A DNA stretch of 64,000 nucleotides from Escherichia coli (GTDB taxonomy: Bacteria > Pseudomonadota > Gammaproteobacteria > Enterobacterales > Enterobacteriaceae). The position numbers are program-made. The DNA is taken from NCBI RefSeq assembly GCF_048403405.1, contig NZ_CP183129.1; one strand, written 5' to 3'. Below are positions 23,418-26,400 of the stretch, piece after piece. How positions within the stretch are numbered: position 1 is the first letter of the stretch; each line of letters opens with the position of its first letter.

Positions 23418-26400
23418 TGACACTAACGCCCGCACATTGCTGCGGGCTTTTTGATTCATTTCGCAAATGTGCTGACATTTTCCCCTCTAATCCGTACCAT
23501 ACACGCCACAGTTTTTATATCAGATTTCTTATGCTGGGCGTTCCGGCATGACGCATACTCTTCTGATGCCATATAACGAATTGAGTCGCTTTTAAATGTC
23601 GCAAAATCAAGAAATTAGTAAGAAAGAACAATACAACCTGAACAAATTACAAAAACGTCTGCGTCGTAACGTGGGCGAAGCCATTGCTGACTTCAATATG
23701 ATTGAAGAAGGCGATCGCATCATGGTTTGCCTCTCCGGGGGTAAAGACAGCTATACCATGCTGGAGATTCTGCGCAATTTGCAGCAAAGCGCGCCAATCA
23801 ATTTTTCGCTGGTGGCTGTCAACCTCGATCAAAAACAACCGGGCTTCCCGGAACACGTTCTGCCCGAGTATCTTGAAAAGCTGGGCGTTGAGTACAAGAT
23901 TGTGGAAGAGAACACTTACGGTATCGTGAAAGAGAAGATTCCGGAGGGCAAAACCACTTGCTCACTGTGTTCTCGTCTTCGTCGCGGTATCCTTTATCGT
24001 ACCGCAACGGAACTGGGAGCGACGAAGATCGCGCTGGGTCACCATCGTGACGATACCCTGCAAACGTTGTTCTTAAATATGTTCTACGGCGGCAAGATGA
24101 AAGGTATGCCTCCGAAACTGATGAGCGATGATGGCAAACATATCGTGATTCGTCCGCTGGCCTACTGCCGCGAGAAAGATATTCAGCGTTTTGCCGATGC
24201 AAAAGCGTTCCCGATTATTCCGTGCAACCTGTGCGGTTCACAGCCTAACCTGCAACGTCAGGTGATTGCTGACATGTTGCGTGACTGGGATAAACGTTAT
24301 CCGGGGCGTATCGAGACGATGTTCAGCGCGATGCAGAATGTGGTGCCGTCGCATCTGTGCGATACCAACCTGTTCGATTTCAAAGGCATTACCCACGGTT
24401 CTGAAGTGGTTAACGGGGGTGATCTGGCGTTTGATCGCGAAGAGCTCCCTCTACAACCGGCGGGTTGGCAGCCTGAAGAAGATGAAAATCAGTTGGATGA
24501 GTTACGACTGAATGTGGTTGAAGTGAAATAACCAGGATAGCGCCCGATGCGCAAGCTTATCGGGCTACTCTTATGGAGGCCGGATAAGACGCGGCCAGCG
24601 TCGCATCCGGCAATCCCGAAGAAGATGTTTACTCTTGCACCCTGCAATTCAACATTTCATTATTTTAATAACCGCACCCGGCACGTTTTTCCTTTAATCT
24701 TCCCGCCCTGTAACTGTTTCCATGCTTTATGAGCAACAGCCTGACGCACCGCGACATAGACATGCGCCGGATGCACGGCGATTTTGCCAATATCTGCGCC
24801 ATCAAGCCCGATATCTCCTGTCAGCGCACCTAATACATCACCCGGGCGCATTTTGGCTTTTTTCCCGCCATCGATACATAACGTTGCCATTTCGGCTTCC
24901 AGCGGCACAATGGAACTATTAACTGGTGGCGTTTGCCAGTTAAGTTTTATCTGCAACATGTCAGAAATGATATTGGCCCGCTGTGCTTCTTCCGGGGCAC
25001 AGAAACTGATCGCCAGACCGCTATTTCCTGCACGCGCTGTACGACCGATGCGATGTACATGAACTTCAGGATCCCACGCCAGCTCAAAGTTCACCACCAG
25101 CTCAAGCGATTTAATATCCAGACCTCGCGCAGCAACATCAGTCGCAACCAGTACACGGGCGCTACCGTTAGCAAAACGTACCAGGGTCTGATCGCGATCG
25201 CGTTGCTCCAGATCGCCGTGTAACGACAATGCACTTTGCCCTACTTCATTCAGCGCGTCGCAGACAGCCTGGCAATCTTTTTTGGTATTGCAAAACACCA
25301 CACAAGAGGATGGCTGATGCAAGCTTAATAACCGTTGCAACAGAGGAATTTTGCCTTTACTGGATGTCTCATAAAATTGTTGTTCAATGGGTGGCAAAGC
25401 ATCTGTTGAGTCAATTTCAATCGCTAAAGGATCGCGTTGCACTCGTCCGCTGATTGCGGCGATGGCTTCCGGCCAGGTTGCCGAAAACAGAAGCGTCTGT
25501 CGAGATGCAGGCGCAAAACGGATGACATCATCAATGGCATCGCTAAATCCCATATCCAGCATGCGGTCGGCCTCATCCATCACCAAAGTATTCAGCGCAT
25601 CCAGTGATACCGTGCCTTTTTGCAAGTGATCCAGCAAACGACCCGGCGTTGCCACGATAATATGCGGCGCATGTTGCAACGAATCACGCTGCAAACCGAA
25701 CGGTTGACCACCGCACAACGTCAAAATTTTAGTATTTGGTAGAAAACGCGCCAGCCGACGCAATTCACCTGCCACCTGATCCGCCAGTTCACGCGTAGGA
25801 CACAGCACTAAAGCCTGGGTTTGAAATAGCGACGCATCAATTTGCTGTAACAAGCCGAGGCCAAAAGCCGCCGTTTTGCCGCTGCCGGTTTTCGCCTGCA
25901 CGCGAACATCTTTTCCGGCAAGGATCGCCGGAAGCGCGGCGGCCTGCACCGGCGTCATGGTTAAATAACCCAACTCATCAAGGTTCGTGAGTTGGGCGGG
26001 AGGCAAAACATTCAGGGTAGAAAAAGCGGTCACAATCTATTCTCGTGGTCATCGACGCAAAGTCAGCAGGCGCGTATCCTCGCAGATCTACGCTCACGAT
26101 GCGACAATTTAATCGGTTCTTCATCGGGTGGTGGGTCAGGCATGGGTTGCGGGCGAGGGATCGGATCGGGCACTGGAACAGGATCGCCAGGAATCGGTTC
26201 AGGGACAGGAATTTGCAAATAAATAAGTGTCGTCATATTTCCCTCCGGTCATTGGGTGGACTCTTAAAGGGTAGACGCTGATAAATAACAGGCAAAATAA
26301 ATATCCTCCGGCATAGCCGGAGGTTTTTCAAATGCGCCTATAAGGCTCTCTTACCAGCCGCGCCCTAACAGGCGCACACGATCTGACATTTGCATCCAAC

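Follow-up and report, generated by a model that had tools for sequence, protein, structure and literature searches.

An unoccupied Rac-type attachment site at the 5' end of ttcA in an Escherichia coli chromosome, beside a probable remnant of an older integrase gene

The closest described counterpart of the locus analysed here is the attachment site of the Rac prophage in ttcA of Escherichia coli. Integration of Rac in this gene, and the restoration on excision of an allele (TtcA') with four residues changed, were reported by Liu et al. (2015, Sci Rep 5:16074; PMC4632033). In that paper, strains fall into two N-terminal classes, and the excised form, TtcA', was concluded to be the older one. 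The account is repeated in a 2019 review (PMC6379469). The annotation of K-12 strain MG1655 gives the order ttcA, cryptic prophage Rac (1411899-1434958, starting with intR and xisR), the ttcC pseudogene and uspF. The initial annotation of our DNA, which had placed the K-12 Rac prophage between ttcA and uspF and in the 5' end of ttcA, is therefore correct on this point.

By 'the window' we mean the whole stretch of DNA analysed, 64 kb of an E. coli chromosome running from paaG to ycjQ. The human blood isolate 4621 differs from its first 50 kb at 203 positions. The left flank of the attachment locus is uspF (universal stress protein F; 22986-23420, plus strand), recognized from its ORF, from the RefSeq annotation of the near-identical strain 4621 and from a Pfam Usp match (E 3.6e-31). 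A terminator scan places the intrinsic terminator of uspF at 23428-23452 on the plus strand, where a GC-rich hairpin (GCCCGCACATTGCTGCGGGC) is followed by TTTTT. On the right lies ttcA (tRNA 2-thiocytidine-32 synthetase; 23596-24531, plus strand), an intact gene for 311 aa of the PP-loop family, as read from its ORF, the annotation of strain 4621 and the family match. Its N-terminus equals that of the K-12 ttcC remnant, and it thus represents the pre-Rac allele (TtcA' of Liu et al.). The spacer from uspF to ttcA measures 175 nt, so that the reported contiguity of uspF, its terminator and an intact ttcA is borne out by the ORFs, the hairpin with its T-run and the spacer length. The interval has no match to any RNA family in Rfam.

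Other features of the window were recorded along the way. The small RNAs MicC (21371-21486, minus strand) and McaS (33992-34087, plus strand) occupy their expected K-12 positions. Between ynaL and fnrS there is a 701-bp insertion relative to K-12 (26302-27002), an IS200C element with tnpA at 26405-26863 on the minus strand and the 5' RNA STnc490 at 26873-26996; FnrS (27009-27126) directly adjoins it. Between smrA and mcaS/abgR, a 3.6-kb island that is not in K-12 (30287-33885) carries a frameshifted DHA2-family MFS efflux gene (30530-31984), an HlyD-family gene (31981-33009) and an AraC-family regulator (33106-33921).

The proposed alignment with the two MG1655 junctions was carried out, and both map to 23620-23645; the outcome that would have counted against the claim, junctions lying elsewhere, was not obtained. 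At base level, the uspF side of K-12 is collinear with the window up to 23645, after which K-12 runs into prophage DNA. The ttcA side shows no mismatch from 23620 on, and imperfect similarity from about 23603, back to the ATG. The overlap of the two sides defines the attB core, AAGAAAGAACAATACAACCTGAACAA, 26 bp within ttcA codons 9-17 (23620-23645), which is identical at 26/26 positions to the copies at both K-12 Rac junctions. These copies lie 23,060 bp apart in K-12, and a Rac deletion of the same 23,060 bp has been reported independently (PMC11014345). In addition, the record of phage Rac-SA53 carries an annotated 26-bp attP at the equivalent position. With the core matched throughout, the flanks collinear and a spacer of 175 nt, the claim of an unoccupied attachment site is supported. 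The interval first given for it (23421-23640) does contain the K-12 junctions, but falls short on the right, as the core ends 5 nt beyond 23640.

How a phage would use this site can be outlined from the sequences. Rac-family phages encode a lambda-like tyrosine integrase, IntR, with an arm-binding domain; K-12 IntR has matches to the Arm-DNA-bind_2 and Phage_integrase families. IntR is predicted to recombine attP with the core in ttcA codons 9-17 (23620-23645), with exchange likely at TACAACCT (23632-23639). When eight attL/attR junction pairs from seven species were compared, this was the only stretch identical in every pair, and we infer that it is the strand-exchange region, assuming equivalent cut positions for all these integrases. 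Just left of the core, AATCAAGAAATTA (23605-23617) matches the IHF consensus (WATCAAnnnnTTR) by pattern. In K-12, a ChIP-type study (PMC8407004) detected IHF on the equivalent attL sequence; the ttcC copy, whose sequence is that of the window, showed no peak.

The attP brings its own ribosome-binding site, an ATG and eight surrogate codons. Integration thereby leaves ttcA intact while swapping its first eight codons (four amino acid changes in K-12) and the upstream region, and strands the old 5' end as ttcC beside uspF. The N-termini agree with this scheme. TtcA in the window begins MSQNQEIS, and its first 17 codons equal those of the K-12 ttcC remnant, whereas K-12 TtcA begins with the prophage-supplied MQENQQIT, which differs at four residues. 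In the window strain, with no insertion, ttcA has kept the MSQNQEIS start and its own upstream region.

Some observations concern the phage side of the site. Repeats of the TTTGCCCC type are found in MG1655 on both phage arms of the Rac core and, read from sequence, look like arm-type integrase sites: the stretch from the intR stop to the ttcA ATG has two copies, the P' arm several (about 6950-7000 and 29770-29960 of the MG1655 extract). Similar repeats also occur in relics of other species. Searching the phage collection with a reconstructed attP gave no free-phage record across the whole attP, and mostly prophage-derived or partial matches. One candidate carrier, 'Salmonella phage SPF_0923' (ON032529.1), was rejected, as it holds a host uspF-side junction and no genuine attP. 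Pyruvate-flavodoxin oxidoreductase, ompN and uspF, all host genes, are included in this record, which looks like a prophage region with host flank, or a mis-assembly.

Taken together, the interval is very probably the attB of Rac-family temperate phages in its unoccupied form, and comprises the pre-Rac promoter region and 5' end of ttcA as well; our comparisons produced no evidence against the attB part of this reading. A survey of complete E. coli genomes shows how widespread this state is. The contiguous uspF-ttcA arrangement is present in 2,487 of the 5,410 genomes with any match (~46%), and the K-12-type intR-ttcA junction in 2,908 (5,403 genomes had any match in that search). The two groups add up to 5,395 genomes, i.e. 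the two states are almost exactly complementary, and in the occupied genomes that were sampled, xisR and intR lie directly upstream of ttcA. One genome, E. coli CAVP776 (NZ_CM176338.1; locus 6709-7422), matches the window only up to 23608, in the first codons of ttcA, followed by IS1 and unrelated genes; it gave no separate ttcA match in the same search, and ttcA with its right flank has probably been deleted or moved. The Rac-free ttcA state is, then, ordinary, common and already published (PMC4632033). It marks the strain as Rac-free at ttcA, which matters little as stated, and its use for annotation lies in the attB coordinates and in the identification of the TtcA' allele.

Two other histories for this arrangement were weighed. 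That uspF and ttcA became contiguous through some other rearrangement, with the K-12 junctions not mapping here, is extremely improbable: the base-level alignment places both junctions at 23620-23645, the megablast blocks against K-12 (18610-23645, 97.5% identity; 23603-26301, 97.9%) break exactly at that site, and the counts of the two states are complementary across the population. It is easier to imagine, if still rather unlikely, that this lineage once carried Rac, or a prophage like it, at the site and lost it again when Int and Xis excised it precisely. Rac excision is precise and regenerates exactly this sequence (PMC11014345, PMC4632033), and more than half of the complete E. coli genomes are occupied, so frequent gain and loss are likely. 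The window itself, however, holds nothing in favour of a cured site. Since precise excision is traceless, never-occupied and cured histories look the same in the sequence.

The initial annotation had also described the locus as free of integrase and phage genes. This stands for intact genes of the Rac type, as 22 Rac proteins gave no match anywhere in the 64-kb window (tblastn, E<=1e-3), but not for the spacer, which holds a 29-codon integrase fossil. The fossil lies at 23465-23548 on the plus strand, corresponds to IntR residues 345-373 and includes the catalytic-box motif NPYHTRH(T/S)F; it was recognized by tblastn and DNA alignment against shuffled sequences. A relaxed tblastn of the spacer with IntR scores about 27-28 bits (26.9 in the shuffle test), which was reached by 0 of 2,000 dinucleotide shuffles (maximum 23.5 bits). 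The translation of the interval, KCADIFPSNPYHTRHSFYIRFLMLGV-PA, aligns with KRAGIRRRNPYHTRHTFACWLLTAGANPA of IntR, part of the tyrosine-recombinase catalytic domain. At the DNA level, 23465-23515 aligns locally with intR nt 1033-1083 (39/51 identical, score 27, against 10.4 +/- 1.2 for shuffles), and similarity to the integrase gene is convincing only over this conserved block of about 51 nt. The frame runs for 29 codons into a TGA stop (23549-23551) right after the alignment, with little similarity to IntR beyond it. What remains is thus a gene fragment and not an intact ORF for the Phage_integrase catalytic domain (PF00589).

Strand and position of the fossil are those of intR in occupied sites. 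The fragment is also present in K-12, upstream of ttcC, and must therefore be older than the Rac integration there. The spacer is probably what remains, after trimming, of an earlier Rac-like prophage, about 84 nt of whose integrase gene would be left. A search of the available library for literature combining ttcA, integrase, remnant and attB found none, and the passages of PMC4632033 on the att site and the N-terminus do not mention such a fossil; it may therefore be undescribed so far. It is a modest addition to the known Rac-free state of ttcA.

Whether the window carries the ancestral 5' end of ttcA, as first proposed, was approached through outgroups, collected by scanning species-representative genomes for a degenerate KKEQYNLNK pattern (at least 120 stretches). 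In seven Citrobacter-type loci (six Citrobacter and one MAG labelled Raoultella) and in Escherichia sp. E1V33, uspF lies about 200-225 nt upstream of the core, the N-termini read MSQNQ(E/D)(I/F)S and no integrase is found at E<=1e-5. Kosakonia cowanii likewise has MSQNQEIS and an integrase-free upstream region. In Escherichia albertii, TtcA begins MQENQQIT, a truncated integrase precedes the gene and uspF lies at a distance of 2.4 kb. This comparison supports the view that, in Escherichia, the window arrangement came before Rac. The word 'ancestral' holds relative to Rac, given the outgroups and the identity with ttcC; it does not hold for the upstream region, which is probably the scar of an older integration rather than a never-visited site.

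Across Enterobacterales, among the matches listed, TtcA residues 9-29 are almost invariant and residues 2-8 widely variable. Serine versus glutamine at residue 2 was considered as a marker of host and phage alleles and then dropped, because a P. vulneris prophage donates MSQNQEVN and displaces MQEHQDVN. This prophage has an intact integrase, and its ribosome-binding site and MSQNQEVN 5' end are almost identical to those of the window. Phages, that is, do carry ttcA 5' ends of this kind.

The most conserved part of the integrase fossil is not confined to E. coli. Among the matches listed, 108 loci have an intact ttcA frame and upstream DNA, and in these we looked for the block AATCCGTACCATA, allowing one mismatch. 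It is present upstream of ttcA in 96 of the 108: within an intact integrase gene at 7 loci, within a long relic (or the 3' end of an int gene that the fetched DNA covers only in part) at 35, and within a short relic at 54, the window included, with 107 nt from the start of the block to the ATG. It is absent at 11 loci, and at 1 the upstream DNA is too short for scoring. In the 51 distinct short-relic sequences, conservation of at least 90% is limited to two sub-blocks, roughly GCTGRCATT and TAATCCGTACCATAC, with a variable spacer between them and unconserved flanks. In intact int genes, conservation of these two sub-blocks extends to synonymous positions. Six block-less taxa, from Kosakonia, Phytobacter and Yokenella, have a canonical extended -10 element, TGnTACAAT, 82-85 nt upstream of the ATG. 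More generally, most of the Enterobacterales species sampled (among the matches listed) have truncated Rac-family integrase genes of varied length upstream of ttcA, and in E. cloacae, E. asburiae and E. chuandaensis a new prophage has integrated beside an older relic.

In the window, the two conserved sub-blocks coincide with a promoter-like site, CTGACA-17 nt-TACCAT (23472-23500, plus strand), with the conserved block AATCCGTACCATAC at 23489-23502. Promoter scan and conservation make this site a candidate for the native ttcA promoter. The extended -10 element of the six block-less taxa and the window-like 5' end of the P. vulneris prophage also speak for it. It has sigma-70 hexamers at a spacing within 16-18 nt and 9/12 consensus matches, though the scan yields about as many such sites in shuffled sequence. 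By eye, a sigma-54 site, a sigma-32 site or a hairpin does not fit the conserved positions.

Published K-12 data bear on the candidate in both directions. A SELEX peak of the RpoD holoenzyme in the ynaE-uspF spacer lists exactly CTGACA-17-TACCAT (Shimada et al. 2014, PMC3946193). The same 960-bp spacer also holds the strong ynaE promoter, whose start is strongly used (PMC3415461), so the peak cannot be assigned, and we dropped it as decisive proof. Kim et al. (2012, PMC3415461) mapped the ttcA transcription starts of K-12 to the 3' end of intR, 111 and 114 nt before the ATG, which means that in the lysogen ttcA has a promoter of prophage origin. The intR-borne copy of the block lies about 100 nt upstream of these starts, and none is listed at the ttcC-proximal copy, identical to that of the window (PMC3415461). 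On balance, the chances that the fossil has the candidate promoter function are roughly even.

A broader proposal, to which we would give somewhat less than an even chance, is that E. coli and most of the sampled Enterobacterales transcribe ttcA from a domesticated piece of a phage integrase gene. Each Rac-family integration would replace the ttcA 5' end and the region upstream of it. The prophage would then decay in place, while selection for ttcA expression keeps about 45 nt of int coding sequence, a stretch that codes for the catalytic-box motif NPYHTRH and by chance resembles a -35/-10 pair. The conserved centre of the fossil would now be the sigma-70-like promoter driving ttcA. Such domestication would account for the conservation of the block at synonymous sites, seen in intact int genes and also in relics that have lost int, and for the contrast in TtcA between eight hypervariable first residues and the near-invariant residues 9-29.

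The block might instead persist without being a promoter, through repeated overwriting by newly arriving Rac-like prophages. The int gene of each newcomer contains the block as well, and homologous recombination between this copy and the relic already in place would remove the prophage and leave a relic behind once more. The two copies do form direct repeats flanking almost the whole prophage, many long relics begin near the block and extend to the end of the int gene, and in E. cloacae, E. asburiae, E. chuandaensis and K-12 prophages have integrated serially beside older relics. That K-12 has no start listed at the block (PMC3415461) also speaks for overwriting. Yet this route sits poorly with the 51 distinct short relics, in which the flanks are unconserved and the spacer varies while the -35-like and -10-like sub-blocks stay at 90% conservation or more. 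Nor does it fit the six block-less taxa, which have their extended -10 element 82-85 nt upstream of the ATG (in the window the block starts 107 nt upstream). We therefore regard overwriting as a doubtful account of the block. If the domesticated promoter were true, it would be a compact case of phage coding sequence retained as a host promoter, and would explain the N-terminal variability of TtcA across Enterobacterales.

Set against known systems, the locus is closest to the Rac attB and TtcA' (PMC4632033): the gene, the core, the N-terminus and the flanking genes are all the same, the state was reported there in Rac-free E. coli and Shigella, and nothing material differs; the passages of the paper on the att site and the N-terminus are silent on the fossil. 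The e14 prophage in icd, along with similar phages that insert within a gene and bring a surrogate gene end (PMC6379469), is alike in that attP duplicates the end of a host gene, which remains intact after integration with few amino acid changes. Whereas e14 exchanges the 3' end of icd, Rac-family phages exchange the 5' end of ttcA, and hence its promoter too; the K-12 ttcA starts lie inside intR. Finally, the system resembles lambda-type recombination, which relies on a heterobivalent tyrosine integrase, Xis and IHF. IntR likewise combines arm-binding and catalytic domains, xisR is adjacent to it, an IHF consensus adjoins the core, and both K-12 arms, P and P', have TTTGCCCC repeats that resemble arm-type sites. 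The attB of lambda is intergenic, whereas that of ttcA lies inside coding sequence, with an overlap region that is here predicted.
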